From: Gammaproteobacteria bacterium
Lineage (GTDB): Bacteria; Pseudomonadota; Gammaproteobacteria; Steroidobacterales; GCA-2729495
NCBI GenBank assembly: GCA_024276095.1
Contig: JAJRXW010000266.1
Location: forward strand, 1-46,976
Reading direction: 5' to 3'
DNA length: 46,976 bases
Shown: piece by piece, positions 12,229 through 40,340 of the stretch
Layout: the number at the start of each line of letters is the position of its first letter
How positions within the stretch are numbered: position 1 is the stretch's first letter
Notes under the pieces: model-generated
Told to the model about the DNA's origin: nothing
Seen by the model: the letters and a program-made list of their open reading frames with translations, nothing else
The model's database searches: none
Made by a program: the position numbers and the translations under genes

Positions 12229-13194
12229 TCAAACCATGGGCCAAATCGTAAATTTGTCCAGCTCCTCTTCCAAGCCGGCGCTGACCATTGCCGGGGTCTG
12301 CAGCTGCCTGGACCGGCGCAGGTCTTCATAACAGGGCACATCGGGATTGCGATAGAGAATGCCCACCGGAATCCGTTCGCTGGTACCGACAAGCTCCCGG
12401 GCCTGGATGAGATCCATCGGATCATGGTCTGCCGTTTGCCGGTACACGCTCGACAGCGCCGTGCTCATTTGCACGCCATCCTCGTGGGTCAATATCAGCA
12501 TCCGGTCCGGATCCTGCACCCAGGGTTCGAAATGATCGGGCAGAAATTCCGGGCAACGCTGCAAAATGCGAATAAACGAAAATCCATGGTGATGGAAAGC
12601 CAGCGAAATGATTTTGTACAGCAGCTCCGGAATCCAGTCAGCGGCCTGGGCCACGAAGGAAAGATTGGACATGCCGAGTGTCGCTATCAAAGGATCGAAT
12701 GCCGCAAGATCCGAGCCCCGTGGCGTGGTGTTGCTGCGCGTCCCCTGCGGCGAAGTCGGCGAAGCCTGTTTCTTGGTCAGACCGTAGATGTTGTTGTCGT
12801 GCATCATCACGGTCATATCCATGTTGTAACGTGCCGCATGAAGCCAGTGTGCAGCACCGATGCTGCAGCAGTCGCCATCGCCGGTATTGACGAAAACGTG
12901 TAGATCGGGCCGGCGCATCTTGATGCCCTCTGCAACAGGCAATGCCCGACCATGCAAACCGTGAAAGCCATAGGTGCCCATGTAATGGGGAAAGCGGCTG
13001 GAGCAGCCGATTCCGGACACGAAAACGACTTTCTCCAGCGGCAACTGCTCGTCGCGCAGCAGCCGCTGTACGGCGGTAAGAATTCCCAGGTCTCCGCACC
13101 CGGTGCACCACCGCGGAGCACAGCCCTCATAGTCTTCCAGGGCCAGCGCTTCTTCGGCAGAGCGCGGTAAAAAATCGACGGCACGTAACGCCAT
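12229..13194 (-). CDS. korB: 2-oxoglutarate (2-oxoacid):ferredoxin oxidoreductase beta subunit
   Basis: N-terminal Cys motif WCTGCGDLGI..., TPP-binding GDGDCCSIG...N..YG motif, typical ~320 aa, immediately downstream of the alpha subunit. Confidence 0.9.
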   Translation of the reverse strand: MALRAVDFLPRSAEEALALEDYEGCAPRWCTGCGDLGILTAVQRLLRDEQLPLEKVVFVSGIGCSSRFPHYMGTYGFHGLHGRALPVAEGIKMRRPDLHVFVNTGDGDCCSIGAAHWLHAARYNMDMTVMMHDNNIYGLTKKQASPTSPQGTRSNTTPRGSDLAAFDPLIATLGMSNLSFVAQAADWIPELLYKIISLAFHHHGFSFIRILQRCPEFLPDHFEPWVQDPDRMLILTHEDGVQMSTALSSVYRQTADHDPMDLIQARELVGTSERIPVGILYRNPDVPCYEDLRRSRQLQTPAMVSAGLEEELDKFTIWPMV

Positions 13195-13205
13195 TTCCGG
13201 TACCT

Positions 13206-15095
13206 CTATTGTTCCCGATCCAGGTGTTGGCGAATAATCCGCTCAACCGTACCGGGCTTGATCGGCTGCTCGCCGACTTCGCCCCAGCAGTCCACATCGA
13301 TCAGGTATTTTGCCCGCAGTAGCCACGCCAGGCTGGAGTAACGGCGGTTATCCTCATCGATCATCGCGTCATCCAGGCTGTCGGCCCAGTTGTTTTCAAC
13401 GGCCAGCACCCTGTCGAAGCGCTGCAGAATCTCCTTGATGCCCGAAGCCATCGGCTGCAAAAAGCGCAGGTGCAGTGCGGAAACACTGCGACCATCCGCC
13501 CGCACCCGGTCGACGGCTTCCCGAATCGCGCCTTTGGTACTGCCCCAGCCGATGACCAGCAGTTCACCTTCATCGTCACCGAATACCGGCGGCGGTTTCA
13601 GCGTCTTCTGCAGGGCAGCCAGTTTCAGGCTGCGGTGCTGGATCGCATCCCTGTTGATCTCCAGGTTATAGGCGACGCTGCTGGTGCGGTCATGGGCAAG
13701 ACCGGTCAGCGTATGCATGCCGTTGGGTTGACCGGGTATGAACCGGTTGCTCTGGCCGGTACCTGCATCCCAGTCATAGGGTTCGTCGTCATCATGTACC
13801 GGACTCTGATCGACGGGCGGGGCCAGCCACTCTTCGCTGAACTGCGGTCGCGTAAACGGCTGCTGGGCCGTTGCAAGACTCGCGTCCGACAGCAGCACGA
13901 CAACCGTATTGAAAGTTTCGGCAATCTTGCGGGCTGTAATCACCGAGTAAAAACAGTCTTCGATATCGGAGGCAGCCATCACCACCTTGGGGGCATCGCC
14001 ATGGCTGCCGAAAATAGCCGTCATCAGGTCGCCCTGCTCGGCCTTGGTGGGCTGCCCGGTAGACGGCCCGCCGCGCTGCACGTCGATCACCACCAGCGGA
14101 ATCTCCGTCATCACGGCAAGACCGATACATTCCTGTTTCAGCGAATAACCGGGGCCGGAGGTAATCGTAACCGCGCACTTGCCGGCATATGAGGCACCGA
14201 TCGCGAATGCACAGGCGGCGATTTCATCTTCCGCCTGGTGCACGACGCCGCCCACCTTCTCGAATACGTCGCTAAGATAATGTGACACGGAAGTGGCAGG
14301 CGTTATGGGATACATGGAGCACACCTCCATGCCGGATGCCATGATGCCCAGCCCCAGCGCGATGTTTCCGCTGACTACGATGTGCGCTTCTTTTGCCGGA
14401 GTGGTCGGAATCTTGTATTTAAAATCGAGATTGTTCTCGGCCCATGTCCAGCCGGCTTCCAGCAGCCGGTTGTTGGACGTTACCACCAGCTCTCCTTTCC
14501 TGCCGAAAATAAACTGGATCTGTTCTTTGGCCAGCTGCATGTCGAGACTGTAAAGGCTGCACAACAGCCCCAGGACGAACATGTTTTTCCCGCGCCGTGG
14601 GTCTGAAACGAGTTTCAGACATTCGACCTCCATCGGAACCTCGTAGACACAAAAGCCCCTGGCCAACAGGTCGTCATATACGCGGGTATAGGAGGCGACG
14701 ATCCCGGCGTCCGGACTGGTCCGCCACTTGTCCTCCAGCAAAATAATACAGCCGGGCTTGAGTTCGTTGGCCTGCAGTCTGCCCAGCAAAACCTGTTCGT
14801 TGAACGCTACGACCAGGTCCGCCTGATCACCGCCGTTCGCCACCGGATGCCCGGCAACCCTGATACGGTTACCGCTGCCTCCTTCGATGCTGCGCGCCGG
14901 GGGCTGGATTTCAGCCGGAATAATTTCCAGTGTCCAGATTCCCTTGCCCATCTTCGCAGCGATCGAGCCGAAAGACTGCCCGCACTTTTGCGCGCCCTCG
15001 CCGGAATCGCTGAGGATCTCGACAATGTGCTCGTCAATCGCCATGGCCGGTTTGCTGACCGGCGAGCGCGGAACCGATTGTTTCCTGGTGGACAT
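13206..15095 (-). CDS. korA: 2-oxoglutarate (2-oxoacid):ferredoxin oxidoreductase alpha subunit
   Basis: 629 aa. Gamma-like domain at the N-terminus (SGEGAQKCGQSFG...), then the pyrimidine-binding domain (YPITPATS...HQAEDEIAA...GASYAGKCAVTITSGPG). GGAGAA RBS 4 nt (spacer GCC) before the ATG. Confidence 0.9.
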   Translation of the reverse strand: MSTRKQSVPRSPVSKPAMAIDEHIVEILSDSGEGAQKCGQSFGSIAAKMGKGIWTLEIIPAEIQPPARSIEGGSGNRIRVAGHPVANGGDQADLVVAFNEQVLLGRLQANELKPGCIILLEDKWRTSPDAGIVASYTRVYDDLLARGFCVYEVPMEVECLKLVSDPRRGKNMFVLGLLCSLYSLDMQLAKEQIQFIFGRKGELVVTSNNRLLEAGWTWAENNLDFKYKIPTTPAKEAHIVVSGNIALGLGIMASGMEVCSMYPITPATSVSHYLSDVFEKVGGVVHQAEDEIAACAFAIGASYAGKCAVTITSGPGYSLKQECIGLAVMTEIPLVVIDVQRGGPSTGQPTKAEQGDLMTAIFGSHGDAPKVVMAASDIEDCFYSVITARKIAETFNTVVVLLSDASLATAQQPFTRPQFSEEWLAPPVDQSPVHDDDEPYDWDAGTGQSNRFIPGQPNGMHTLTGLAHDRTSSVAYNLEINRDAIQHRSLKLAALQKTLKPPPVFGDDEGELLVIGWGSTKGAIREAVDRVRADGRSVSALHLRFLQPMASGIKEILQRFDRVLAVENNWADSLDDAMIDEDNRRYSSLAWLLRAKYLIDVDCWGEVGEQPIKPGTVERIIRQHLDREQ

Positions 15096-15104
15096 GGCTT
15101 CTCC

Positions 15105-16607
15105 CTAGCCCAGCCGAACGCGCGTGAACGTCCGTTCTTCGAGACCGATGCCAAACAGCTTGCTGTCGCTGCCGGTTTGCGGCGCCTGATAGACCGTTTC
15201 CGAATCGCGTATGCCAAGGTAGGCTTTCATGCTGCGTGCCGCCTCCCGGCCGGTACCCATGGCCAGAATGACGGTCGCGGCGCCCGTTACGATGTCACCG
15301 CCGGCATAGACACCCGCCATTGACGTGGCGAAATGCTCGTCGGTCTGGATATAACCCCATTTGTTCAGCTCGATCTTCGATGTCTGGCCGATGATCGGGT
15401 TGGCATTGGTTCCAATCGCATACACCACCGTATCGATCGCAAATTCGAAATCGCTGCCCTCGATCGGTATCGGACGGCGCCGGCCGGAATCATCCGGCTC
15501 ACCCAGTTCCATACGGACGCAACGCATCGCGCGCACGTTGTTCTCGCCGTCATCCAGGATCTCGACCGGCAGCGTCAGCCACTCGAACTGGATACCTTCT
15601 TCTTCGGCATGTTCGATCTCTTCTTCGCGGGCCGGGCTCTCTTCGCGGGTGCGCCGATAGATACAATAAACCTGCTCCGCCCCGGCCCGCAGCGAAACCC
15701 GCAGTGCATCCATCGCCGTGTTGCCGGAACCGATGACGGCAACACGCTTGCCCAGACCCAGCGGCGTATCGTATTTGGGAAACTCGGTGGCACCCATCAG
15801 GTTACAGCGTGTCAGCAGTTCATTGGCAGACAACACGCCATTGAGCGATTCCCCGCCAATCCCCATGAAACTCGGATACCCGGCACCGGTACCGATGAAT
15901 ACGGCGTCGAAACCGAGTTCATCGAGCATCTGCTCGACCGTGAACAGCCGTCCGGCGAGCATATTGCATTCGATCCTGACGCCGAGGCGGGTGAGATTTT
16001 CCAGTTCGGCATCGAGCACACCGTTGGGCAGGCGAAACTCGGTAATACCGTAGCGCAGCACGCCGCCCGCTTTGTGCAGGGCTTCATAGATTGTGACATC
16101 GCAACCGGCCTTGGCCATGTCCGCCGCACAGGCCATACCGGCAGGACCTGAACCGATGATGCCCACCCTGAGCCCGTTGGGCTCGATGTATGGCGTATTG
16201 TCCCAATGCTCGTGGATTGCCGTATCGCCCACCCAGCGTTCGAGCCGCCCGATGGCCACCGGTTTGAGTTTATCGCCGACCGGGCAAACCCCCTCACACT
16301 GGTCCTCCTGCGGACATACCCTGCCGCAGATCGCCGGCAGCAAAGTGGAATCGGTGAGGATGTCGTAGGCGCCGCGAAAATCCTTTGCCGCAATCCTGGT
16401 AATAAACCCGGGAATATCGATGTTCACGGGACAGGCCGGGACACACTCCGGATTCGGACAAACGAGGCAGCGCTCGCTCTCGTTCAGTGCATCCACTTCG
16501 CGATAGCCCAAAGTCACTTCATCGAAATTGCCGACCCGCACCGCCGGGTCCTGTGTCGGTATCGAGGTCCTTTCCTGCGGAATGCTGCGAATGGTTTTCT
16601 TGCCCAT
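15105..16607 (-). CDS. GltD/NfnB/SudA-family NAD(P)H-dependent iron-sulfur flavoprotein (glutamate synthase small-subunit-like)
   Basis: ERCLVCPNPECVPACPVNIDIPGFI plus a second Cys cluster CGRVCPQEDQCEGVC, two dinucleotide folds (VGIIGSGPAGMACA and VAVIGSGNTAMDA), and GGD near the C-terminus. Its start codon abuts the upstream stop (TAGATG). Confidence 0.85.
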   Translation of the reverse strand: MGKKTIRSIPQERTSIPTQDPAVRVGNFDEVTLGYREVDALNESERCLVCPNPECVPACPVNIDIPGFITRIAAKDFRGAYDILTDSTLLPAICGRVCPQEDQCEGVCPVGDKLKPVAIGRLERWVGDTAIHEHWDNTPYIEPNGLRVGIIGSGPAGMACAADMAKAGCDVTIYEALHKAGGVLRYGITEFRLPNGVLDAELENLTRLGVRIECNMLAGRLFTVEQMLDELGFDAVFIGTGAGYPSFMGIGGESLNGVLSANELLTRCNLMGATEFPKYDTPLGLGKRVAVIGSGNTAMDALRVSLRAGAEQVYCIYRRTREESPAREEEIEHAEEEGIQFEWLTLPVEILDDGENNVRAMRCVRMELGEPDDSGRRRPIPIEGSDFEFAIDTVVYAIGTNANPIIGQTSKIELNKWGYIQTDEHFATSMAGVYAGGDIVTGAATVILAMGTGREAARSMKAYLGIRDSETVYQAPQTGSDSKLFGIGLEERTFTRVRLG

Positions 16608-17690
16608 CTACTTCGCTCCGGCGGCCGTCTTCCAGGCATCCATGGCCTGGGATTCCTGTTGTTTAAACCGCCCCAGTCGATTCATCAGATCGTCGAAATC
16701 GACCTTGTGCCCGTCAAACTCCGGGCCATCTACGCAGGCGAACTTCGTCTCGTCGCCGACAATGACGCGACAGCCCCCGCACATACCCGTGCCGTCAACA
16801 ACAATGGGGTTCATGCTGACGATGGTCTCAACCTTGTAGGGACGGGTCGTCTCCGCACAGGCTTTCATCATGATCGGCGGACCGATGGCAACCACCCGAT
16901 CGACGTCGGGATGTTTTTCCAGGGCGGCCTCTACACCGAGCGTAACGCGGCCCTTGATGCCCACCGAGCCATCGTCCGTGCAGATGATCAGCTCATCGCA
17001 ATACTGCCGGAACCGGTCTTCCCAGAAAATCAGCTGCCTGTTCCTGAAACCGACCACACCGATAACATATGCACCGCTTTGCTTGAACGCGCGCAACTGG
17101 GGAAAGATGGGCGCAACACCGAGGCCGCCACCGACACAAACGACTTTTTTGGTATCGAGATGACTGGGGAAGCCCATCGGCCCGGCGACGCTGTACAGTC
17201 GTGACCCGGCCTGACAGCGCTGCTGCATTTCCCGCGTCGACTTTCCGACCGCCTGGATAACCAGCGTGATGGTCCCGGCCACCCGATCGAAATCTGCGAT
17301 AGTCAGCGGCACACGTTCTCCGCGCTGGTGTGAAATCACGATGACGAACTGGCCCGGTTGCGCGGCCCGGGCCAGCATCGGTGCGGACACTTCCAGCAGG
17401 AAGGTGACGTCGGAGAAGTCTTTCCGGGTGACGACTTCATAACCGGTGCCCGGGGGCGGATCCACGGACGTGCTGCATGCAGTAGCAGCGGCGCGCTGCT
17501 CACGCGCCTGTCTGATTTTACTGCGGAATTCCTCAACAACTGCCTGGCGCGCAGTCTGGGCGGTTTTCAAATCACGCGTCTGGAGCGACCGGCGCAGATC
17601 ACAGCCCAGCGAATCGCGCAGCGGGCGCGGTACCGCAACCTTGACCCACCAGATCTGGTCGCGCTTGAAAAGGTATTTCGTGTCGCTCAT
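16608..17690 (-). CDS. NfnA/SudB/PyrK-like FAD/[2Fe-2S] electron-transfer subunit carrying an unusual ~80-aa basic N-terminal extension
   Basis: Residues ~85-360 match the ferredoxin-NADP reductase-like fold (GQFVIV...ERVPLTIADFD, VCVGGGLGVAPIFP) and the PyrK-type cluster motif DGTGMCGGCRV...CVDGPEF. The ATG at 17690 follows GGGGG at 7 nt. No ATG start exists near residue 80; a GTG codon at residue ~76 lacks a visible RBS. Confidence 0.8.
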   Translation of the reverse strand: MSDTKYLFKRDQIWWVKVAVPRPLRDSLGCDLRRSLQTRDLKTAQTARQAVVEEFRSKIRQAREQRAAATACSTSVDPPPGTGYEVVTRKDFSDVTFLLEVSAPMLARAAQPGQFVIVISHQRGERVPLTIADFDRVAGTITLVIQAVGKSTREMQQRCQAGSRLYSVAGPMGFPSHLDTKKVVCVGGGLGVAPIFPQLRAFKQSGAYVIGVVGFRNRQLIFWEDRFRQYCDELIICTDDGSVGIKGRVTLGVEAALEKHPDVDRVVAIGPPIMMKACAETTRPYKVETIVSMNPIVVDGTGMCGGCRVIVGDETKFACVDGPEFDGHKVDFDDLMNRLGRFKQQESQAMDAWKTAAGAK

Positions 17691-19918: not shown

Positions 19919-21241
19919 CTACGGTTTAAGATCAGCCCGATGGCTGTTGGCAATTTTACCGATGCTGACCTCGTCAACACCCGCCTGCCGGGCAAAATCC
20001 GGCCAGGCCTCCACGGCCGCGTATACCTGCTGAATGATGCGCTTCGCGGGAGATATATTGAATCGGCCGGCAACCGCCAGAAGGTCTTCGGCCAGAAAGT
20101 CATCCTGCTTTCCGTTGATTGCCATTTGGTGTCGACTGGTCCACGCCCCGTCGGGATTGTAAGCATACGTGACATCGAATGCCGGTGAAAGACACCACTT
20201 TCCCTGTTCGTCCATCAGGAATGCAATGTTCTTCGTATGATCGTCCTGGTTTCTGGCCAGAACATTGAATACCATTCGGCGATACTGCTCGATCAGGGAA
20301 CTCATCGGCAACTGCAGCTGCTGTATGACCGAAAAAGCCTGTTCGTAACTGTGAGCGCCGGCAAGCCTGAAATCGAGATGCGATATTGCAAACAGGGATT
20401 GCATGTGAATTTTGTCGCCGTTGCTTTTCCGGTCGAAACGCCTGGTCATGAAATGAGCGCGATCGTTTTCATAGAGAAGCCTCGACGGCGTCATCTCGAT
20501 GCCGGCAGCCTTCGCCATGAGATAGTAGCCGAACTCTATTTTTCCGTATCCCCGGGGATCGGCAAGACCTTCGTAGCGATTGTCAACGCCATCGAATTTC
20601 AGCAGCCAGTACTCAAAACCCTCCGGTGCGGCAACCTGCCCGGAACGCATCTCCTGCGTGGCGGGGTTCCATGCAACGATTGCTTTCGCCCTTGCTCCAC
20701 CCGCCGACGTACCGACACGAAGAATATCGTCCAGGGCGCCGGCATCAGGTGAATCTTTTCCGGATAACCGGACATGAAGTTCCTCGCGTTGATGAATAAC
20801 GCTGTTGACCAGGTCAACCAGCTCGGCGATTTCTATCACGGCGGAAGCCCCCGGCGCGCGCCGCATCGATGGACGGTATTCGAGCGCGCCCATTCCGCGC
20901 CGTCCGATGTAGCACAACCGTTCAACAGGACTGAACCCGGCCGGATCGCGGCCCTGCCTGGCCAGCCATTCCTGGATGAGCCTGTTGCCAAAATCATCCG
21001 GTAACGAATCCGCCAGCAATCCCGGCAGGCCCAGGAAACCGGGCCCGGAAAGCTCCGGAAACGAGTAAATCTTTCTGGCCCGTAGCGGCATCATCAACGG
21101 CGCAGGCTCGATACCGGTTCTTGCAAATTCCTCGGTGTACTCGAACGACGCCACCCCGCGCCGCTCATCCCAGGATACCGCGCCGAGCGAACGCCCCCAC
21201 AGGTCGATCTCGGCAACGTCAACACGCTTGCCTGTTATCAC
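19919..21241 (-). CDS. hipA: Type II toxin-antitoxin toxin HipA (Ser/Thr kinase)
   Basis: 440 aa. N-terminal coupling domain (VAEIDLWGRSLGAVSWD...FEY), kinase core with SAGGARAKA and NQDDHTKNIAFL motifs. Directly downstream of an XRE-type antitoxin gene. Confidence 0.9.
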   Translation of the reverse strand: MITGKRVDVAEIDLWGRSLGAVSWDERRGVASFEYTEEFARTGIEPAPLMMPLRARKIYSFPELSGPGFLGLPGLLADSLPDDFGNRLIQEWLARQGRDPAGFSPVERLCYIGRRGMGALEYRPSMRRAPGASAVIEIAELVDLVNSVIHQREELHVRLSGKDSPDAGALDDILRVGTSAGGARAKAIVAWNPATQEMRSGQVAAPEGFEYWLLKFDGVDNRYEGLADPRGYGKIEFGYYLMAKAAGIEMTPSRLLYENDRAHFMTRRFDRKSNGDKIHMQSLFAISHLDFRLAGAHSYEQAFSVIQQLQLPMSSLIEQYRRMVFNVLARNQDDHTKNIAFLMDEQGKWCLSPAFDVTYAYNPDGAWTSRHQMAINGKQDDFLAEDLLAVAGRFNISPAKRIIQQVYAAVEAWPDFARQAGVDEVSIGKIANSHRADLKP

Positions 21242-21251
21242 CCTGCAACAC

Positions 21252-21575
21252 TCACTGTGCTGCTTTCCCGCGGGCCCGGGAACCGGTTGCGCGCTGGCGG
21301 ACTCTGCCCCTGAGTTTTGCCAGCTGCACCGGGCTGAGTCCAGGATCCGGAAGAAAATTTTCCAGTTGGTTGATCAGGCCCAGTCCGCGCAGCATGCGAA
21401 CCAGGGTTTCCACTGAAAAATTGCGCCCGTCCTCGGCGTTCTGGATGGTTTTCAGCGCAAGACCCGTTTGTCCCGCCAGCTCTTTCTGGGCCAGGTTCGC
21501 GTTGAGACGCTCACGGCGCAAACGCTGACCCAGTTCAGCCAATATGGCCTGATCGCTCATCTGTGCAAAATTCAT
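21252..21575 (-). CDS. hipB: HipB-like XRE-family antitoxin / transcriptional repressor
   Basis: 107 aa with an HTH (LGQRLRRERLNANLAQKELAGQTGLALKTIQNAEDG), 10 nt upstream of hipA. Confidence 0.8.
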   Translation of the reverse strand: MNFAQMSDQAILAELGQRLRRERLNANLAQKELAGQTGLALKTIQNAEDGRNFSVETLVRMLRGLGLINQLENFLPDPGLSPVQLAKLRGRVRQRATGSRARGKAAQ

Positions 21576-21745
21576 AACACGTATCTTAATACATAAAAAT
21601 GGCAGATATAAGGATAAAAGGTAATATATTATTTCTTATGTGCATTCTATTATTGATTATTATAAGTAGTATACTACTTATTATCAATGAGTTCCTTATA
21701 TTATCAGTAATATATTACTTTTTATCATTAATCATGTCTGGCAAA
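21576..21745. promoter_or_regulatory. AT-rich hipBA promoter/operator region containing several palindromes
   Basis: About 170 bp of very low GC in a ~60% GC context. Contents: a perfect 20-bp palindrome ATAAGTAGTATACTACTTAT (21662-21681); a perfect 12-bp palindrome GTAATATATTAC (21707-21718) with a near copy GTAATATATTAT (21621-21632); and an inverted pair ATATAAGGA (21607-21615) / TCCTTATAT (21693-21701). Confidence 0.55.
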
Positions 21746-21764
21746 TGAGCTAAACGGGACCGGC

Positions 21765-22085
21765 GGGCATCCGAATACCTGTATTTGCGCTGCGGCGAAA
21801 CCCGGCGGTAACCGCGGCCGATACGCAAGCTTATCGCGAGGCCTTCGACAGGCTGGAATTACTGGTGGTCATCGATGTCGCGATGACTGAAACTGCACAG
21901 CAGGCTCACTATGTATTACCGGCCGCATCCCAGTTTGAAAAGTGGGAAGCCACCTTTTTTAATCTGGACTTCCCGGTAAACGGCTTTCACCTGCGAAAAC
22001 CCCTGTTCGCGCCTGCCTCCGGCACCCTGCCGGAGCCTGAAATCTATCACCGGCTGGCGGTTGCCACAGGTGCAAAACACTGCAA
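21765..22085 (+). pseudogene. Internal fragment (~105 codons) of a molybdopterin (bis-MGD) oxidoreductase
   Basis: The frame of track ORF 21865..22200, extended upstream, reads ...NPAVTAADTQAYREAFDRLELLVVIDVAMTETAQQAHYVLPAASQFEKWEATFFN...LPEPEIYHRL. This is the typical mid-protein region of COG0243-type molybdoenzymes, which are ~700 aa or more. There is no N-terminal cluster/MGD domain upstream (the AT-rich region and hipB lie there), and similarity is lost before it runs into the convergent KdsC-like gene. End points are approximate. Confidence 0.65.
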
Positions 22086-22124
22086 TCCGGTCAGACACCC
22101 TTTCATAAATACGTGCCGGTGCGG

Positions 22125-22850
22125 CTACTGGCGATTGACGATGTCGCCTCCGACCTCTGAAAAGCAGCGCGTGGTTACTGCCTGGCGCATCGCCAGATAG
22201 GCCCCATAATCATGATCACTGGCCGCGCGGGATGAAACCACCTCGTCATACCGCCCGATCAGCCCGAGAAAAAGCTCGCATACCTCGCGCACGGCGTGTG
22301 CTCCTCCCGTCTTGCCCGTCACATAGTCACAAAGCGCCTGCCGGCGAACATGGCTGGAGAACAGCGGGCTCGCATCCCGCCGGATCATAAAACGCAAACC
22401 GCAACTCGCTGCCATCGGCAAATCGTTGATGTCGTCAAACACGCAGGCGATCCGGTCTGCATCCAGACCTTCCGTTTTGCACAGGTGATCGATGATCCGG
22501 CCCTTGTTGCCAACGCAAAGATAGACCTCGGAGAAATGCTCGCGCTTGGCAAACTCATCGGCATTCGCATTGGCGGCACCACTGATGACTGCGGCGAACG
22601 GCAAGGCGCCCGACTGCCTCCAGAGCCCGTAACGAAGCATGTTGGTGCCCATGGAATCCGGTTCACTGAACCGGCTCGCCTGCCCGTTGCCCTTGCAGCC
22701 GTTATTGAACACGCCATCCCAGTCAAACACCAGCGCCCGGCACTGCCGGGCGCGCGCCGCCATTTCACCCGCCGGTGTCGCGAACTCACCGCCCAGCGCC
22801 TCGAAACAGGCGGCCAGTTTCGTCAGGTCCTGCCCCGCGTGATCGGCCAC
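22125..22850 (-). CDS. HAD-IIIA phosphatase related to KDO-8-phosphate phosphatase (KdsC/YrbI-like), with N- and C-terminal extensions
   Basis: Motif I FDWDGVFNNG and motif IV VFDDINDLPMAASCG resemble KdsC (FDVDGV..., GDD.ND.P). At 241 aa it is longer than the ~180-aa KdsC. The GTG start shares one base with the upstream stop (TAGTG). Confidence 0.65.
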   Translation of the reverse strand: MADHAGQDLTKLAACFEALGGEFATPAGEMAARARQCRALVFDWDGVFNNGCKGNGQASRFSEPDSMGTNMLRYGLWRQSGALPFAAVISGAANANADEFAKREHFSEVYLCVGNKGRIIDHLCKTEGLDADRIACVFDDINDLPMAASCGLRFMIRRDASPLFSSHVRRQALCDYVTGKTGGAHAVREVCELFLGLIGRYDEVVSSRAASDHDYGAYLAMRQAVTTRCFSEVGGDIVNRQ

Positions 22851-23881
22851 TAGTCGTGCCCGATAATGCCCAGCTTGACGATATCCTGGATGTCCAGAAT
22901 ACCCACCGGCTTGCCCTCCTCGAGGACGACAATCGAATCGATCTGGCTGCTTTCGAATTTGGCCATCGCGTCATACAGCAGGGCATCCGATGAAATACCG
23001 ATCGGGTCGGCCGTAAAGCCGAGCTCTGCCAATGTCTGGGAGAGAATGCCCGAGCCATCCTCCTGCAGTTTCCGCCGCAGATCGCCATCGGTAAACACGC
23101 CGATCGCACCGCCATCGTCTCCTGTAATGGTGAGTGCGCCCAGGCCGGACTCTGTCATCTTGACCATGGCATCGGCAACGGTATCCGAAACCGTGCAACA
23201 CGGATTCATCTCACGAATCACCTGGCCCACCCGAACGGTCATCAGCTGAGTGTGCTCGACAAACTGATTGGTACCGACCGTCGTCAATGCATTCTGGGTC
23301 AGACGTTTCATGACACCCCAGGGCACGGTACATACGTGAACACCCGAAAGAAGGGCGGTACGCACATGCTCCGGATGGCGGACAGATGAGAACATGATTT
23401 TGGTGGGATAACTGTAATTCTCAACAACGTCCACACAATGCTCGTATAAAGAGATTGCATCGTGCCCCTCATCCTGGAGCCGGCCCGCCAACGGGCAGAC
23501 ATAGGCTGCACCGGCGGCCATCGCCATGTATGCCTGGCTCAGGGTATAGATCAGGTGCACATTGACCTTGTGCCCCTCATCGGTCAGCGTCTTGCAGGCC
23601 CGCACGCCGATATTCGAGATCGGCACCTTGAAGACAGGTTCGATCTCCAGCGGCAGGGTCAACAGCCTGTGCGCTTCGTCGATAATCTCCTCGTAGGTAT
23701 TACCGAGCGCTTCGACCTGAAGCTCGGGCACCATTTTGGACAACTCGACGATGGCACCGTCAATATCGGTAATACCGTGCCGGTGCATGAAGGTCGGCGT
23801 CGTCGTGAGGCCCTTGACAAATCCGAGCTGAAAAGCTTCTTCGATCTCTTCAAAATTGACTGAATCGAGATATAAATCCAT
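22850..23881 (-). CDS. Fusion protein: transaldolase/fructose-6-phosphate-aldolase-like TIM barrel (N-terminal) + KdsD/KpsF-type tandem CBS pair (C-terminal)
   Basis: N-terminal ~215 aa: MDLYLDSVNFEEIEE...GLTTTPT... and VFKVPIS, aligning by eye with the Schiff-base Lys region (...VKIP) of TalC/FSA-type enzymes. C-terminal ~125 aa: two CBS repeats including GVFTDGDLRRKL, a near copy of the KdsD motif GIFTDGDLRR. No SIS domain is present. Confidence 0.75.
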   Translation of the reverse strand: MDLYLDSVNFEEIEEAFQLGFVKGLTTTPTFMHRHGITDIDGAIVELSKMVPELQVEALGNTYEEIIDEAHRLLTLPLEIEPVFKVPISNIGVRACKTLTDEGHKVNVHLIYTLSQAYMAMAAGAAYVCPLAGRLQDEGHDAISLYEHCVDVVENYSYPTKIMFSSVRHPEHVRTALLSGVHVCTVPWGVMKRLTQNALTTVGTNQFVEHTQLMTVRVGQVIREMNPCCTVSDTVADAMVKMTESGLGALTITGDDGGAIGVFTDGDLRRKLQEDGSGILSQTLAELGFTADPIGISSDALLYDAMAKFESSQIDSIVVLEEGKPVGILDIQDIVKLGIIGHD

Positions 23882-23897
23882 GGTCTATTCCTTCGAT

Positions 23898-24734
23898 TTA
23901 CTGTAGTTGTTGTCGAGCAAGGTGATGAATATCCAGAAGCGGCTTCAGGAATTCTTCCAGGTCGTCGAGATAGTACTGGCTGGCGGCATCGCACAGCGCA
24001 TCCGGCGGGTTCGGGTGCGCTTCAACGAAAATCCCGTCAACCCCGGCCGCAACCCCGGCGCGTGACAGAACGGAGAGGTACTGACGCATTCCACCACGAG
24101 GATCCTTGCTGGGAATACCGTACTTGCGAATCGTGTGGGTAATGTCGAAAACGACCGGGTAGCCGATCTCGCGCAACATGAGAAAACTCCGCGGGTCGAC
24201 GATCAGATCGTTGTAGCCAAAGGTATAGCCGCGCTCGGTAAGAATGATCTTCCCGCCGCCGCTGTCTTCGATCTTCCTGACGGGTTTGGACATGCCGTCC
24301 GGCGCGATGAATTGCCCGTGTTTGAGATTGACCACCGCACCTGTCTTGGCAGCCGCGACAACCAGCTCGGTTTGCATGCAAAGATAGGCGGGTATCTGAA
24401 CGATGTCGACCACCTCCGCTGCCGGCGCTGCCTGGGACGGGTAATGAATATCGGTCAGCAGCGGAAGATCGAACTCGGCCTTGATTTTCTCCAGCAGTTT
24501 CAGGCCCTCATCCAGGCCCGGCCCCTGGAAATAATCCAGCGAACTGCGATTGTCCTTGCTGAACGAGGATTTGAAAACCAGCGGCAAATCGAGCTTCCGG
24601 GAAATCTCCTTCAGCCGCTCTGCGGTTTTCATCATCAGCGACTCGGCTTCGATAACGCAGGGCCCGGAAATCAGGAACATATCGTCTGATCCGCAGTCGA
24701 TGCCGGCCACGTCTACATGTTTAACATCGGTCAT
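23898..24734 (-). CDS. kdsA: 3-deoxy-8-phosphooctulonate (KDO-8-P) synthase
   Basis: 278 aa with LISGPCVIE, PLVFKSSFSKDNRSS, QIPAYLCMQTELV, NLKHGQF and DITH motifs typical of KdsA. Confidence 0.9.
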   Translation of the reverse strand: MTDVKHVDVAGIDCGSDDMFLISGPCVIEAESLMMKTAERLKEISRKLDLPLVFKSSFSKDNRSSLDYFQGPGLDEGLKLLEKIKAEFDLPLLTDIHYPSQAAPAAEVVDIVQIPAYLCMQTELVVAAAKTGAVVNLKHGQFIAPDGMSKPVRKIEDSGGGKIILTERGYTFGYNDLIVDPRSFLMLREIGYPVVFDITHTIRKYGIPSKDPRGGMRQYLSVLSRAGVAAGVDGIFVEAHPNPPDALCDAASQYYLDDLEEFLKPLLDIHHLARQQLQ

Positions 24735-33196: not shown

Positions 33197-33277
33197 ATAT
33201 TCGCGCAGCACCGACCGAAAAATGCCAGGCGCCGTTGTAGGTCATTGATTTATATATGCTTAATATTATCGTGATGT

Positions 33278-33293
33278 TGGCACGAATCCTGCT
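33278..33293 (+). promoter_or_regulatory. Sigma-54 (-24/-12) promoter
   Basis: TGGCACGAATCCTGCT compared with the consensus TGGCACG-N4-TTGCW: GG and GC are exactly 12 nt apart and only one core mismatch (T to C). It lies just downstream of a sigma-54 activator gene and upstream of a long co-directional operon. Confidence 0.65.
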
Positions 33294-33445
33294 TTATAGA
33301 AGTCGGATACTGTCGACTATGCGCTTCCCATACGATCTGGTGTCCCCACCAAGTTTGCACCGTATCGTAGCGGGCAGGATCTGGCCCCTCCAGGCCCTGC
33401 CGCGACAGAGTCCATGCAGTGGCACCCAGCGCATTTGCACTGGGG

Positions 33446-33469
33446 AAGCGCGTTCGATTGAACGCGCTT
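33446..33469 (+). other. Perfect 10-bp hairpin in the leader of the sigma-54 operon
   Basis: AAGCGCGTTC-gatt-GAACGCGCTT followed by TTG. It lies ~140 nt after the predicted start site and ~125 nt before the first credible start codon. Possible attenuator or processing/stability element. Confidence 0.35.
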
Positions 33470-33594
33470 TTGCCCTGCCTATCCGGACAGAGAATCCCGA
33501 TAACACTGCCGGAGACAAGATCAGGCAAAGGAAAAGCACCATTTGGAAGATAAGCGGGAAACGGCGGATCGGCTCCGGCGGCGCGTACCGGGAA

Positions 33595-34272
33595 ATGCTG
33601 CCGATTACGCTGATCTTCCTGACCCTGCTTATGTCAAAGTTTCTCTTCGTAATCCCCGAAGGGCCTGCCTATCCGGCCTTATCGACACTGGTTCTCGCGG
33701 CGAGTACCTGGTTCGCAGGGATACTGTTTCTACCCCCGGCCGATCACCCTCGACAGGCTGGCCACGGAACTCTGGCGGTTTTGATCTGGTGCCTCAAGCT
33801 GGTGTTCGTATTTCTGGCGCTGGCAGTCCTGGATCCTGCCAGCCGGTCGATACTCCCGCTGCTTCCGCGGGTGGCAGCGACATTGTTTCTCCTGCTGTCG
33901 CTGAGCCTGTTACTTACAACCAGGATTACCGCGCGATTTACCGACAGCCGGCAGGTCGTCGCCGGAATCGCTGCGGCACTCGCCGCCCTGCCTGTCTGGC
34001 TGGGTCCGTTGGTGGAATTTTCCGGCAATGCGCCTTTGCTGACCAATACCCTGGTCGGCGCGAGTCCCATCACCGTCTTTGCCGTTGCGCTGGACCTGGA
34101 CTACCTGCGAACGACCTGGTTCTATGCCCACAGCGCACTCGGTTCGCTCCGCTATGATTATCTATCCTGGTCAGCCTATGCCACGGGTTTCGTTATTGTC
34201 ATTGCCGGACTTGTTCTGGCAGCATTGCGAGCAGACAACAGGCCCGTTTTCATTTCATCAGAAAAAGAGTAA
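33595..34272 (+). CDS. Polytopic inner-membrane protein, unknown family (first gene of the sigma-54 operon)
   Basis: The track ORF opens at 33256, but its first ~113 codons have non-protein-like composition and include the promoter. From M114 (MLPITLIFLTLLMSKFLFV...) the product is ~225 aa with about 6-7 hydrophobic helices. The start is uncertain. Confidence 0.5.
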   Translation: MLPITLIFLTLLMSKFLFVIPEGPAYPALSTLVLAASTWFAGILFLPPADHPRQAGHGTLAVLIWCLKLVFVFLALAVLDPASRSILPLLPRVAATLFLLLSLSLLLTTRITARFTDSRQVVAGIAAALAALPVWLGPLVEFSGNAPLLTNTLVGASPITVFAVALDLDYLRTTWFYAHSALGSLRYDYLSWSAYATGFVIVIAGLVLAALRADNRPVFISSEKE

Positions 34273-34279
34273 GCGCCCC

Positions 34280-35368
34280 ATGAAACATAAAATACTTCCT
34301 TTTGTTCTGTTTTCTCTTTTATTAAGCGCCGTCAGCACCGGTCTCCTGGCAGACAGCAACGGCATGGACCCGGAGATCAGGAGTAAAGCCAAGCGTGCAG
34401 TGGATGCCGGGCTGCATTACCTGCGCACCCATCAGCAGGAAAACGGTTCCCTGTCGAACTCGGTCGGCGTCACCGCACTGGGACTGCGGGCGTTTTTGCA
34501 AAGCCACCGTGGCTACAAGGAAAGTGACGGCGCGTTCATTACCCGGCCGATCCAGTTTCTCCTGGAACATGTCAACGACGATGGCTCTATCAGTGAAACC
34601 AACCAGAATCGAAATTACAACACAGCCGTCTGCATGACTGCGCTGGCCGCGACCAATAATGACCGGTATGCCGAGGTACTGGCCGGTGCGCGTAATTTCC
34701 TCAAGGGTCTGCAGATCGATGAAGGTGACGGCTACGAAAGCGATCACGCATATTATGGCGGCATCGGCTATGGCGGCGATGAACGCCCGGACCTGTCGAA
34801 TGCATACATGGCACTCGAGGGCCTGAGGGCCAGTGCGACCGATCCCGATGACCCGGTGTGGAAAAAGGCATTGATCTTTGTCAGCCGGTCGCAGAATCGC
34901 AGCGAAAGCAACGACCAGGAATGGGCCGCCAACGACGGGGGGTTCACCTATATGCCGGGTTTCAGCCCGAATGGCGGCACAGCATCCTATGGCGGAATGA
35001 CATCGGCGGGCCTGTTGAGCCTGCTTTTTGCCGGCGTGGACAAAGAAGACCCCAGGGTCCAGGCAGCCTACGACTGGATTCGGGCGAATTACACCCTGGA
35101 GTACAACCCGGGTTCCGAGGGAGGAACGCAGGGCCTCTACTACTATTACAACGTGTTCGCCAAGGCGATGTCTGCCTATGGTGCCGATATGGTAGTCGAC
35201 AGCGACGGCACGGCGCACAACTGGCGCAATGAGATCGCAACCAAGCTGATGGACCTGCAGAACGACGACGGTTCCTGGGTCAACCCCGATTCGCCACGCT
35301 GGTGGGAAGGCAACAAAGACCTGGTCACTGCATGGAGCGTGATCGCGCTGAACGCGGCGATCAATTGA
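34280..35368 (+). CDS. Secreted prenyltransferase/squalene-oxidase-repeat (alpha/alpha-toroid) protein
   Basis: I prefer the ATG at 34280, 7 nt after the upstream stop. Signal peptide MKHKILPFVLFSLLLSAVSTGLLA. Repeated QW-type motifs (QQENGSLSNS, VNDDGSISE, QNDDGSWVNPDS) and aromatic-rich helices typical of terpenoid-cyclase/prenyltransferase beta-subunit-like repeats. Confidence 0.7.
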   Translation: MKHKILPFVLFSLLLSAVSTGLLADSNGMDPEIRSKAKRAVDAGLHYLRTHQQENGSLSNSVGVTALGLRAFLQSHRGYKESDGAFITRPIQFLLEHVNDDGSISETNQNRNYNTAVCMTALAATNNDRYAEVLAGARNFLKGLQIDEGDGYESDHAYYGGIGYGGDERPDLSNAYMALEGLRASATDPDDPVWKKALIFVSRSQNRSESNDQEWAANDGGFTYMPGFSPNGGTASYGGMTSAGLLSLLFAGVDKEDPRVQAAYDWIRANYTLEYNPGSEGGTQGLYYYYNVFAKAMSAYGADMVVDSDGTAHNWRNEIATKLMDLQNDDGSWVNPDSPRWWEGNKDLVTAWSVIALNAAIN

Positions 35369-35372
35369 CCAG

Positions 35373-36881
35373 GTGCTGTTCATACCCGGTGTCCTCGCCA
35401 CAGGCATCATGCTTGGTCTGGCGATGTCCGGCCCGGGTCTGGCCAGCGAAAACCTGACCGTAGACGCCCGCACTGCATTCGATACAGGCATCTCGACGAA
35501 ACAGATTTCCGAACTCGGGCTTCATATCCTGAGCGCCCGGGGTGGGGAACTGGAACTGCGCGTCACCGGTGTGCTTCCTGAAGTCACTACGACCCGGTAC
35601 CTGAGACCCGGCGAACCCATGGATATGTGGCTGCCGGTCGGGCAGGCCGCTCCCGGACAAACGCCGGTACTGACCGTGCGGATGGGAGAGGAACGGCCCG
35701 TAACCTATCCGTTGCCGGGCGCTTCGCCCGCCGTTGCCGTGCTGTCAGGCGAGACAGCCATACAACTGCTCGGCGATCTTTTCGGTACGGTTGCCGTTGC
35801 CGGTGAGCGCCTGCCCCGTTATGCACCTGCCTATGCGCAAATCCCGGCCGTGGTACTGGACAGGGAGTCGTTGACCAGGCTCGACGAATTCCAGCTGCGT
35901 GCCTTACTGGACTTTGCAGGCACCTGTGGCCGGCTGATGCTGATCGATGCACCTGACAAGGCGAAACAGGTCTTCGCCAACCGCGCCGCCTGTAGCGGAC
36001 GGTTCCTGAGCACACTGGAAAGCAAGAATATGCAGTCGCCACAGGCCGTGGCAAAAGCATTCAGGACACTTGTCGACAAACCCGGCCGCCAGTTTCTTTC
36101 TCAGGAATCGCTGCGCACACTGCTGCCACAGTCAGTGGCCGGCATCGGCAATCTGTCAGTGCCCGGACTCTTTCTGGCCGGATACCTGCTTGTTTTCACC
36201 ATCCTGGTCGCGCTGGAACAAACACGGCTGGCGAGCCTCGCTTTTTGCGTCATCGGGGTGCTGCTTGCATTGCTGATCTGGCAACCGGGTGCCGGCCGCT
36301 CATTTGTTGCCTGGGCGGAAATGGACGCCGGTGATCGTGTCGCTCGCTACGCCGGCATAGAAGGGTTTTTCTCTACCGGTCGCGGCACCCTCAGCGTTCC
36401 GTCACACAGCTTCGGCAGCTATCCGGTTCAGATCATCGGCGACAATACGGTTTTGCAATGGGGCAGACATGCCGATGAAAGGCAGCTTCGCTGGCGTGCT
36501 GCTCTGCTGAGCCGAATGTACCTGAACAGCCGGGGCAGCTTCCCGGTAGACCCCAACCTCCGGGCACAGGCCAACGACAGGTATGCCAGCGTCTGTAATC
36601 ACGGCGCTGCTGTGACCCAACCCGCGCTGCTGTACTGGCGGGGCTCGGCTTATGCGATCCCCGCGCTCGAGCCGGGCGCGGCATGGTCGACTGACGAGCA
36701 GCCAATCCTGTCGGGCGCGGCCTCCCGGAGGCCCGAGATCCGGCTGCTCAGAACGAGAGCTGCCCCGTCACCTCTGGCCCTGCTGCAGTCCCTGCCGATA
36801 TCCACCGGCGGTGAAAACGATCGGGCCTGGCTGCTCCAGGTTGAGCCGTCACCGGGCGGAGAGAAACCATGCAACGGCTGA
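35373..36881 (+). CDS. Hypothetical 502-aa exported/membrane protein, no recognisable domain
   Basis: GTG start 4 nt after the upstream stop. Signal-like N-terminus (LFIPGVLATGIMLGLAMSGPGLASE) and two central hydrophobic helices (PGLFLAGYLLVFTILVAL, LAFCVIGVLLALLIW). Coding-like composition. The start codon is uncertain. Confidence 0.6.
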   Translation: MLFIPGVLATGIMLGLAMSGPGLASENLTVDARTAFDTGISTKQISELGLHILSARGGELELRVTGVLPEVTTTRYLRPGEPMDMWLPVGQAAPGQTPVLTVRMGEERPVTYPLPGASPAVAVLSGETAIQLLGDLFGTVAVAGERLPRYAPAYAQIPAVVLDRESLTRLDEFQLRALLDFAGTCGRLMLIDAPDKAKQVFANRAACSGRFLSTLESKNMQSPQAVAKAFRTLVDKPGRQFLSQESLRTLLPQSVAGIGNLSVPGLFLAGYLLVFTILVALEQTRLASLAFCVIGVLLALLIWQPGAGRSFVAWAEMDAGDRVARYAGIEGFFSTGRGTLSVPSHSFGSYPVQIIGDNTVLQWGRHADERQLRWRAALLSRMYLNSRGSFPVDPNLRAQANDRYASVCNHGAAVTQPALLYWRGSAYAIPALEPGAAWSTDEQPILSGAASRRPEIRLLRTRAAPSPLALLQSLPISTGGENDRAWLLQVEPSPGGEKPCNG

Positions 36882-39448: not shown

Positions 39449-39450
39449 TC

Positions 39451-40338: not shown

Positions 40339-40340
40339 AC

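Follow-up and report, generated by a model that had tools for sequence, protein, structure and literature searches.

A transaldolase-like barrel in the place of the KdsD isomerase domain beside Kdo8P synthase genes: a candidate alternative source of arabinose-5-phosphate

The 46,976-nucleotide contig JAJRXW010000266.1 of a Gammaproteobacteria bacterium (Steroidobacterales; assembly GCA_024276095.1), the whole of which is referred to here as the window, carries on its minus strand a three-gene operon with a predicted role in the synthesis of 3-deoxy-D-manno-octulosonic acid (Kdo). The first gene, kdsA (24734-23898, minus), encodes a Kdo 8-phosphate (Kdo8P) synthase of 278 amino acids. A 16-nucleotide spacer, atcgaaggaatagacc, separates it from a gene for a protein of 343 amino acids (23881-22850, minus), in which a transaldolase-like (Tal) barrel (residues 1-212; 23246..23881, minus) is joined to a pair of CBS domains (residues ~216-343; 22853..23236, minus), and which is termed here the Tal-CBS fusion. 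The third gene (22850-22125, minus) encodes a phosphatase of the haloacid dehalogenase (HAD) type with 241 amino acids. Open reading frames (ORFs) and domain profiles define the first two genes, and the third was recognised as a KdsC homologue by BLASTP. One base is shared between the TAG that ends the fusion gene and the GTG with which the HAD gene begins (TAGTG), and the HAD start is predicted to be translationally coupled to that stop. A first-pass annotation of this DNA had described the same reading frames and junctions and had proposed that the barrel replaces the isomerase domain of KdsD. Re-reading of the sequence gave both the 16-nucleotide gap and the TAGTG overlap as claimed, and the motifs MDLYLDS, GLTTTPT, VFKVPIS and GVFTDGDLRRKL were all found in the 343-residue protein.

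The C-terminal part of the fusion is a CBS pair of the KdsD type, as had been claimed; the assignment comes from NCBIfam, a BLAST-type alignment and AlphaFold2 (AF2) with Foldseek. Two CBS stretches were detected by Pfam (59.1 bits against a cut-off of 24), and the best NCBIfam matches were to KpsF/GutQ, KdsD and GutQ, with 44-50 bits against cut-offs of 204-505. These alignments are limited to the CBS part of the models (profile positions 155-267 of 268, and 214-328 of 328). The pair shares 27% identity with residues 217-328 of Escherichia coli KdsD (E 2e-10), and carries GVFTDGDLRR at the point where E. coli KdsD has GIFTDGDLRR. An AF2 model of the CBS pair alone (pLDDT 87.7) gave as its top Foldseek matches 3K2V, 4O9K and 3FNA, which are CBS pairs of arabinose-5-phosphate isomerases. 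In KdsD the CBS pair binds the end product of the pathway, CMP-Kdo, and the pair in the fusion is presumed to be a regulatory module.

The catalytic domain of KdsD, an SIS domain, is gone. None was found in the 343-residue protein by Pfam search, and residues 3-203 match instead the TAL_FSA family (PF00923) with 112.5 bits against a cut-off of 27 (E 3e-32). The closest sequences in the PDB are the small transaldolases 1VPX, 3R8R, 1WX0 and 3S0C (E 1e-32 to 1e-39), with fructose-6-phosphate aldolase (FSA) farther away. Foldseek places the AF2 model (pLDDT 86) on 1VPX and 3R8R over ~210 residues with TM-scores, normalised to target length, of 0.85-0.90. Among the matches of the structure search there was no PDB entry joining such a barrel to a CBS pair. 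To describe the fusion as a KdsD in which a transaldolase barrel has taken over from the SIS domain, as was done at first reading, is accurate. Because the SIS domain is absent, the fusion is best placed outside the KdsD/KpsF family, although it sits in its place.

The barrel has the features of the Tal/FSA superfamily, namely the profile match, the (beta/alpha)8 fold, a Schiff-base Lys on strand 4, Asp6 and the phosphate site. Its residues were mapped by alignment to Thermoplasma acidophilum transaldolase (TacTal) and E. coli FsaA, and the numbering coincides with that of FSA. Asp6 and the Schiff-base Lys85 (codon 23629-23627) are kept from both enzymes (Asp6 and Lys86 in TacTal, Asp6 and Lys85 in FSA), as is the phosphate site Arg134/Ser166/Arg168 (Arg135/Ser167/Arg169 in TacTal, Arg134/Ser166/Lys168 in FSA). 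Glu57 and Asn107 are in the transaldolase state, corresponding to Glu60 and Asn108 of TacTal, where FSA has Gln59 and Leu107. Four further positions are replaced: Gln55 (Ser58 in TacTal, Phe57 in FSA), His109 (Thr110, Thr109; codon 23557-23555), Cys129 (Ser130, Ala129) and Leu131 (Phe132, Tyr131). In transaldolases Thr110 and Glu60 hold the catalytic water and Ser130 (Ser176 of TalB) binds the C1-OH of the ketose donor, while Phe132 in transaldolase versus Tyr131 in FSA decides between transferase and lyase activity. Titles of PDB entries (TacTal E60Q/F132Y, FSA Q59E, TacTal K86A) confirm that these positions have been studied mechanistically. From the constellation of a bona fide transaldolase (Glu60/Thr110/Ser130/Phe132) the barrel retains only the Glu, and in place of the FSA constellation (Gln59/Tyr131/Ala129) it has Glu57, Leu131 and Cys129. 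Its score lies below the cut-off of every NCBIfam model for Tal and FSA, including the transaldolase equivalogs TIGR00875 (150.8 against 245.95), TIGR02134 (61.1 against 281.95) and TIGR00874 (33.2 against 396.2).

This combination of residues is strongly conserved. All mapped active-site residues, including Asn107 and the His109/Cys129/Leu131 set, are invariant in 36/36 close homologues, so the catalytic Lys85 and Asp6, on which the first-pass annotation had made its proposal depend, are both in place. A scan of metagenomes seeded on the His motif alone returned 379 relatives, from which 80 loci with barrels 30-60% identical to that of the window were kept. In the divergent barrels D6, E57, K85, R134, S166 and R168 are retained in 72-76/76 and N107 in 67/76. 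Cys129 and Leu131 are present in 76/76, though they lay outside the search pattern; His109, the seed of the scan, is likewise present in 76/76, and position 55 is His or Gln in 73/76. Among 104 full-length barrels from a protein library clustered at 50%, 28 have His/Cys/Leu, 61 Thr/Ser/Phe and 3 are FSA-like, and one split of a neighbour-joining tree parts the His/Cys/Leu clade from canonical Tal/FSA. The tree is read as unrooted, its midpoint root having fallen inside the His/Cys/Leu clade. The barrel belongs to a distinct clade, which is neither transaldolase nor FSA at its acid/base positions. Of the earlier description as a TalC/FSA-like barrel, the fold and the Schiff-base Lys stand, while the acid/base positions carry a signature of their own. 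The change from Asn28 to Thr in the TTTPT motif does not define the family: it was considered as a key substitution and rejected, position 28 being Asn in 55/76 divergent members and Thr in 21/76.

The products encoded on either side of the fusion also bear on the pathway. KdsA of the window scores above both NCBIfam KDO8P synthase equivalog cut-offs (NF003543, 337.2 against 242; TIGR01362, 326.7 against 314) and matches Pfam DAHP_synth_1 with 208.8 bits. The Cys of its GPCVIE motif presumably indicates the metal-dependent class, and we take its KDNRS motif to match the KANRS arabinose-5-phosphate loop. BLASTP aligns 185 amino acids of the HAD protein with E. coli KdsC at 28% identity (E 2e-14), in keeping with the KdsC-like phosphatase that had been annotated. 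The DxDGV and DD motifs of the HAD protein align with those of KdsC, and it is longer than KdsC at both ends, with N- and C-terminal extensions. It is presumed to be a divergent KdsC (YrbI) homologue and to act as the Kdo8P phosphatase.

The fusion is widespread. It has thousands of matches in a large protein database, and the best 120 (69-100% identity) all combine PF00923 with PF00571, under names which include 'CBS domain-containing protein', 'TalC/MipB family fructose-6-phosphate aldolase' and 'transaldolase'. In species-representative (GTDB) genomes, 208 stretches encode a relative. Neighbourhoods were counted by tblastn in the best 80 of these 208 (57-82% identity) together with the window, giving 81 loci, and adjacency is expressed relative to the loci with enough flank (73 for kdsA, 76 for the HAD gene). 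The best 80 comprise 19 Gammaproteobacteria (Woeseiaceae, Acidiferrobacterales, Chromatiales and Thiotrichaceae), 24 Desulfobacterales/'Deltaproteobacteria', 32 Bacteroidota, 3 metagenome-assembled genomes of other Proteobacteria, 1 Nitrospira and 1 Leptospiraceae. Cultured carriers in the Bacteroidota are Thermonema rossianum, Thermoflexibacter ruber and Raineya orbicola.

At these loci kdsA lies directly upstream on the same strand in 54/73 and a KdsC-like HAD gene directly downstream in 52/76, and as this order recurs in several phyla it is far beyond chance. Within 10 kb, genes were found for WaaA at 34 of the 81 loci, KdsB at 14, Kdo kinase at 8, heptosyltransferase at 18 and an LpxL-like acyltransferase at 16; the identities of WaaA, KdsB, KdkA and heptosyltransferase II were confirmed above NCBIfam cut-offs. 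Several Desulfobacterales loci have the gene order waaA-kdsB-kdsA-fusion-HAD, which, with the fusion standing in the slot of KdsD, is predicted to take in all the steps by which CMP-Kdo is made and Kdo transferred. No second CBS or Tal match was found in any of the 81 loci, and E. coli KdsD residues 1-205 as query found no SIS-type isomerase in 1.32 Mb of family loci including the window. The module is unusually well conserved across phyla (KdsA 62-84% identity, the fusion 57-82%), which suggests that it has spread horizontally as a unit.

More distant relatives keep the same company. Tal-CBS proteins with Lys/His/Cys/Leu at 29-39% identity, looked up individually, adjoin genes for KdsA-like proteins (46-50% identical to KdsA of the window) and CMP-sugar synthetases, in polysaccharide clusters that also encode methyltransferases, radical SAM/SPASM enzymes, glycosyltransferases and Wzy. 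The same Kdo-type neighbours surround His/Cys/Leu barrels that stand alone, with no CBS domains, for example in the orders CTP_transf_3, 96-residue mini-HAD, DAHP_synth_1, barrel, and barrel, DAHP_synth_1, CTP_transf_3. In the metagenome set a KdsA-like gene lies within 3 kb of the barrel in 69/75 loci with room for it (~92%), in 55 of them within 300 nucleotides, and where both flanks reach 3 kb or more it is present in 30/31 loci. Genes for a CMP-sugar synthetase (cytidylyltransferase) occur within 3 kb in 36/75, HAD or mini-HAD phosphatases also occur, and none of the 80 loci gave an SIS match. No pentose-phosphate enzyme is a recurrent neighbour in the divergent loci, where sugar-modifying enzymes make up the other neighbours that recur. 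As controls, two canonical small transaldolases were taken, which have Thr/Ser/Phe and lie away from kdsA-type genes. As barrels without CBS domains keep KdsA-type neighbours, the link to Kdo belongs to the barrel rather than to the CBS fusion, and it is ancient. The fusion had been annotated as a Kdo-linked unit; its adjacency to kdsA stands, whereas the link is carried by the barrel.

Several further observations concern these divergent clusters. Beside the KdsA-like and cytidylyltransferase genes (loci L100-L179, L084, L085, L091 and L095) there are sugar-modifying genes, with radical SAM/SPASM genes in 24 loci, GFO/IDH/MocA oxidoreductases in 18, and MptE/Maf-like proteins and short-chain dehydrogenases in 14 each; methyltransferase genes recur likewise. 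These neighbours suggest modified Kdo-like ulosonic acids. The mini-HAD of 96 amino acids (MIYAIDIDGVLC...), for which there is no Pfam match on record, recurs beside the KdsA-like gene and the His/Cys/Leu barrel (L084 4231-4521; L091 3902-4192; also L092, L093 and ~20 of L100-L179). It is 74% identical between two unrelated contigs, and seems to replace KdsC in divergent clusters.

A sister group of Tal-CBS proteins (P0128, P0129, P0137 and P0157; 29-39% identity) has Arg or Ser in place of the Schiff-base Lys, and is also without His109, Cys129 and the phosphate-site residues, while TDGDLRR is retained in its CBS pair. Its genes (L081 1434-2438, L082, L086) follow a Peptidase_M61 gene in both informative contigs, and no Kdo genes were found near them in those two contigs. 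The proteins of this group may be pseudo-enzymes, or they may serve another function. The stand-alone barrel P0184 (L094 1-1234) has His/Cys/Leu with Lys in place of Arg134, and the ORF ahead of it weakly matches the lid domain of the phage T4 gp44 clamp loader (E 8e-4), so that this barrel may be phage-borne. Cyanophage TalC was also considered as a member of the clade and was rejected, as that of S-SSM5 (L180 3986-4666) has Thr/Ser/Phe and no Kdo neighbours.

Together, these data describe a catalytically intact-looking, remodelled class-I-aldolase barrel which is, to judge from sequence, a constant partner of KdsA-type synthases in the slot of KdsD/KpsF. Kdo is required for lipopolysaccharide (LPS) in nearly all Gram-negative bacteria. 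We consider it highly probable that the fusion is a non-orthologous stand-in for KdsD/KpsF which gives D-arabinose-5-phosphate (A5P) to the adjacent Kdo8P synthase. The first-pass annotation had suggested that the fusion supplies an aldose phosphate to KdsA, and the linkage to kdsA and other Kdo genes across phyla, including that of divergent and CBS-less barrels, strongly supports this suggestion. The co-translated HAD protein would dephosphorylate Kdo8P, so that kdsA, the fusion and the HAD gene would make up a self-contained cassette leading from central metabolites to Kdo. The retained CBS pair of the KdsD type would most likely keep the regulatory input of KdsD.

As to the reaction, Schiff-base chemistry on an aldopentose phosphate, in which the C2-C3 bond is made or broken, has in our view about even odds of being right. 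The aldopentose phosphate would be bound to Lys85 as a C1 aldimine, a proposal based on the complete Schiff-base set (Lys85, Asp6, Glu57 and Asn107) and the sugar-phosphate site (Arg134, Ser166 and Arg168) that have been kept. A C1 aldimine fits this phosphate site because the span from C1 to the C5 phosphate equals that from C2 to the C6 phosphate of fructose-6-phosphate. The enamine of glycolaldehyde bound to Lys85 would then add to glyceraldehyde-3-phosphate (GA3P), and the product would have the (2S,3R) arabino configuration, which is the one expected from the stereochemistry native to the Tal/FSA site. The two-carbon unit could come from free glycolaldehyde or from ribose-5-phosphate cleaved in the same site. 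The latter route would amount to a net 2-epimerisation of ribose-5-phosphate to A5P by retro-aldol and then re-aldol reaction, and it is favoured over free glycolaldehyde as the operon encodes no source of glycolaldehyde.

The replaced residues would fit such a substrate. His109, Cys129, Leu131 and His/Gln55 are proposed to rebuild the donor/C1 pocket and the site of proton transfer. Ring opening of the furanose and proton shifts at C2 could be the task of the new His residues, and Cys129 with Leu131 would give a new shape to the pocket in which a ketose places its C1 hydroxymethyl group. These are the positions at which a ketose-specific transaldolase would need to change to accept an aldose. 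There is precedent for this chemistry in related enzymes. FsaA condenses glycolaldehyde and GA3P specifically to Ara5P, and TalB F178Y yields both Ara5P and Ribo5P (PMC9947464; also PMC6900487, PMC8208507). Since the TalB variant makes both products, a transaldolase site can handle both C2 epimers. We put the probability that the fusion both substitutes for KdsD and works by Schiff-base chemistry at roughly 55%. More tentatively, and at somewhat less than even odds, the His109/Cys129/Leu131 barrels may constitute an unrecognised class-I family of A5P-making enzymes, an 'A5P aldolase' or a ribose-5-phosphate 2-epimerase, that replaces KdsD/KpsF at the first committed step towards Kdo and Kdo-like ulosonic acids.

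A number of points weigh against this reading. The roles of residues in the barrel are carried over from Tal/FSA structures by alignment. No precedent for a ribose-5-phosphate 2-epimerase was found in the full-text literature, and no gene for a source of glycolaldehyde recurs in the neighbourhoods, which weakens the route from free glycolaldehyde. In about a quarter of the close-family loci, mostly from Bacteroidota, kdsA or the HAD gene is not adjacent, and the HAD protein scores far below the cut-offs of the KdsC models (NCBIfam, 48.9 against 208 and 41.4 against 106.95). The cassette could be an accessory rather than a replacement, the SIS search having covered loci rather than whole genomes. 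Lastly, an invariant Cys at the pocket for the ketose C1, with the new His, would suit a base-catalysed ribulose-5-phosphate isomerase.

This last point leads to the best placed of the alternatives, though we think it unlikely, in which the barrel is a true arabinose-5-phosphate isomerase that converts ribulose-5-phosphate to A5P, the net reaction of KdsD, through acid/base catalysis and with no productive Schiff base. The C1 proton would be abstracted by Cys129, at the place where transaldolases bind the ketose C1-OH. Proton shuttling or furanose ring opening would be left to His109 (with His55), and the enediolate would be stabilised by Lys85, much as in TIM or RpiB. Non-orthologous displacement usually preserves the reaction, and the swap beside the CBS pair would then leave the logic of the pathway unchanged; the operon would also need only an intermediate of the pentose phosphate pathway as substrate. 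Cys129, His109 and Leu131 are invariant in both sets of barrels (76/76 and 36/36, with His/Gln55 in 73/76), and such strict conservation of the Cys suggests catalysis over pocket filling. What argues for Schiff-base chemistry instead is that the Schiff-base set is retained (Asn107 in 67/76) and has been lost only in relatives that are not linked to Kdo. On chemical reasoning, a ketimine of ribulose-5-phosphate would tend to go to a dead-end Heyns product, and with C2 at Lys85 the phosphate site would be spaced for a chain one carbon longer. We know of no isomerase in the transaldolase fold.

It is improbable that the barrel supplies a different aldose phosphate, or that the cassette is an accessory second pathway for Kdo or a Kdo-like sugar beside a canonical kdsD, in some clades or in all. 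Capsule, O-antigen or a modified ulosonic acid would be candidate products. Divergent members do lie in polysaccharide clusters with Wzy, glycosyltransferases, radical SAM/SPASM enzymes, methyltransferases, GFO/IDH/MocA oxidoreductases, aminotransferases and MptE/Maf-like transferases, and the cross-phylum conservation of the module, with the horizontal spread that it suggests, would suit an accessory function. In the close family, by contrast, the neighbours are waaA, kdsB, Kdo kinase, lpxL-like and heptosyltransferase genes, which belong to the LPS inner core and not to capsule. KdsA of the window, which contains the KxNRS loop, scores above the two KDO8P synthase equivalog cut-offs, and its cassette lies among ordinary chromosomal housekeeping genes.

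An ordinary transaldolase of the pentose phosphate pathway, or a fructose-6-phosphate aldolase, that has acquired CBS domains and whose adjacency to kdsA merely coordinates supply with envelope synthesis is very improbable. The fold and Schiff-base residues are those of small transaldolases, and JGI names such as 'TalC/MipB family fructose-6-phosphate aldolase' or 'transaldolase' reflect this. Nevertheless, the barrel falls below every NCBIfam Tal/FSA cut-off, and the positions of Thr110/Phe132/Ser130 in TacTal and of Gln59/Tyr131 in FSA are invariantly replaced. Canonical small transaldolases, including cyanophage TalC, keep Thr/Ser/Phe, the controls are not beside kdsA, and ~92% linkage to KdsA-like genes in divergent loci is unlike a housekeeping pentose-phosphate enzyme. 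A non-catalytic sugar-phosphate sensor, in which a pseudo-enzyme barrel with CBS domains modulates KdsA or KdsC, is scarcely credible: CBS pairs are regulatory modules and the sister Tal-CBS group has lost the catalytic Lys, yet that group adjoins Peptidase_M61 rather than Kdo genes, across all Kdo-linked members the catalytic Lys/Asp/Glu and the phosphate site hardly vary, and stand-alone barrels without CBS domains retain the Kdo linkage.

The proposed A5P-supplying role can be compared with known systems. The fusion shares with KdsD/KpsF/GutQ its pathway position and operon logic (kdsA, kdsC, kdsB and waaA neighbours), a homologous C-terminal CBS pair with G(I/V)FTDGDLRR, and a similar length (343 amino acids against 328). 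It differs in that the SIS catalytic domain is gone, with an unrelated (beta/alpha)8 class-I-aldolase barrel instead, and its reaction may not be isomerisation. Single-domain A5P isomerases such as that of Bacteroides fragilis (PDB 3ETN) likewise show a catalytic domain that occurs with or without CBS, although theirs has the SIS fold and the barrels the transaldolase fold. E. coli FsaA/FsaB (TalC/MipB) have the same fold, phosphate site and numbering of Asp6/Lys85/Arg134/Ser166, and form A5P from glycolaldehyde and GA3P (PMC9947464). Identity is only 23%, however, with Gln59/Thr109/Ala129/Tyr131 against Glu57/His109/Cys129/Leu131 and no Tyr acid/base in the barrel, and FSA has neither a fused CBS pair nor linkage to Kdo genes. 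Nearest are the small (subfamily 5) transaldolases (Thermotoga maritima 1VPX, Bacillus subtilis 3R8R, T. acidophilum 3S0C; cyanophage TalC), at 32-35% identity, in which Asp6, Glu60, Lys86, Asn108, Arg135, Ser167 and Arg169 are conserved. Their Ser58/Thr110/Ser130/Phe132 are replaced in the barrel clade by Gln or His/His/Cys/Leu, and the genomic context of the clade is Kdo and not the pentose phosphate pathway. The sulfofructose transaldolase BmSF-TAL (8BC3/8C4I), which was among the PDB matches, is a precedent for the recruitment of a small Tal barrel to a new sugar pathway, although it keeps ketose transaldolase chemistry and has no CBS pair or Kdo link.

The remainder of the window is ordinary chromosome, with housekeeping genes around the cassette. 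Its products include a PEP-utilising enzyme, RNase T, RsgA, RecR, DnaX and a TonB receptor, as well as a 2-oxoacid:ferredoxin oxidoreductase, HipBA, an NtrBC-like pair and a MoxR/BatA operon. Domain searches over the whole window found no other LPS gene and no SIS protein, and a scan for promoter and terminator consensus sequences yielded no interpretable result at the operon. There are long antisense ORFs over kdsA (24135-24689, plus), the HAD gene (22296-22853, plus) and the fusion gene (22866-23249, plus). An apparent 'family' of 309-residue ORFs at position -1 in six GC-rich related loci was rejected, as tblastn showed it to be antisense to kdsA. Two features occupy the region on the 3' side of the HAD gene (window 19919-22200). 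Directly after the HAD gene, an ORF of 111 amino acids weakly resembles the C-terminal part of a molybdopterin oxidoreductase (E 5e-4), and is probably a gene remnant overlapping the HAD 3' end. A HipB-HipA toxin-antitoxin pair comes next (21575-21252 and 21241-19919). The closest relative (L001, 82% identity) instead has waaA after the HAD gene, which suggests a local rearrangement or insertion in the genome studied here.

Two other gene clusters of the window were noted. At 12229-17690 there are subunits of a 2-oxoacid:ferredoxin oxidoreductase (POR_N/POR, TPP_enzyme_C). Also encoded there are a Fer4_20/Pyr_redox_2 protein and a DHODB_Fe-S_bind protein, the latter with a DUF6538 match at its N-terminus; this cluster is unrelated to the Kdo finding. 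At 38414-44433, genes for a MoxR AAA ATPase, DUF58, BatA and VWA-domain proteins form a Bat/aerotolerance-like operon, and several ORFs before it (33256-38457) have no Pfam match.

A search of the full-text literature, with subscription-only papers lying outside it, returned no description of a Tal-CBS protein or of a KdsD substitute, and only uses of FSA and KdsD in synthetic pathways. The survey of Tal-CBS architecture beside kdsA and kdsC that the annotation had called for gave kdsA upstream and a HAD gene downstream at most of the loci counted above. What is new here is a predicted unrelated enzyme at the entry of a known pathway, together with a putative new functional clade in a known fold. 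If the proposal is right, the transaldolase family would gain a reaction of a new type, and the His109/Cys129/Leu131 signature would give a simple rule to tell these barrels from housekeeping transaldolases. Thousands of entries named 'CBS domain-containing protein', 'transaldolase' or 'F6P aldolase' would need their annotation to be corrected. An Ara5P aldolase with high affinity for glycolaldehyde has been explicitly called for (PMC9947464). Should the fusion prove to be a glycolaldehyde-dependent A5P aldolase, it would be a natural counterpart of the enzyme wanting in synthetic assimilation of glycolaldehyde and ethylene glycol.

For the bacteria themselves, the substitution would account for the apparent lack of KdsD when the metabolism of Woeseiaceae, Desulfobacterales, Cytophagales and others is reconstructed. 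To our knowledge, KdsD has been treated as the universal source of the Kdo precursor and as a drug target. The Tal-CBS fusion and its relatives would represent a clear non-orthologous displacement inside an essential pathway, and would give hundreds of species, spread over five phyla or more, a second and mechanistically unrelated entry to Kdo synthesis.

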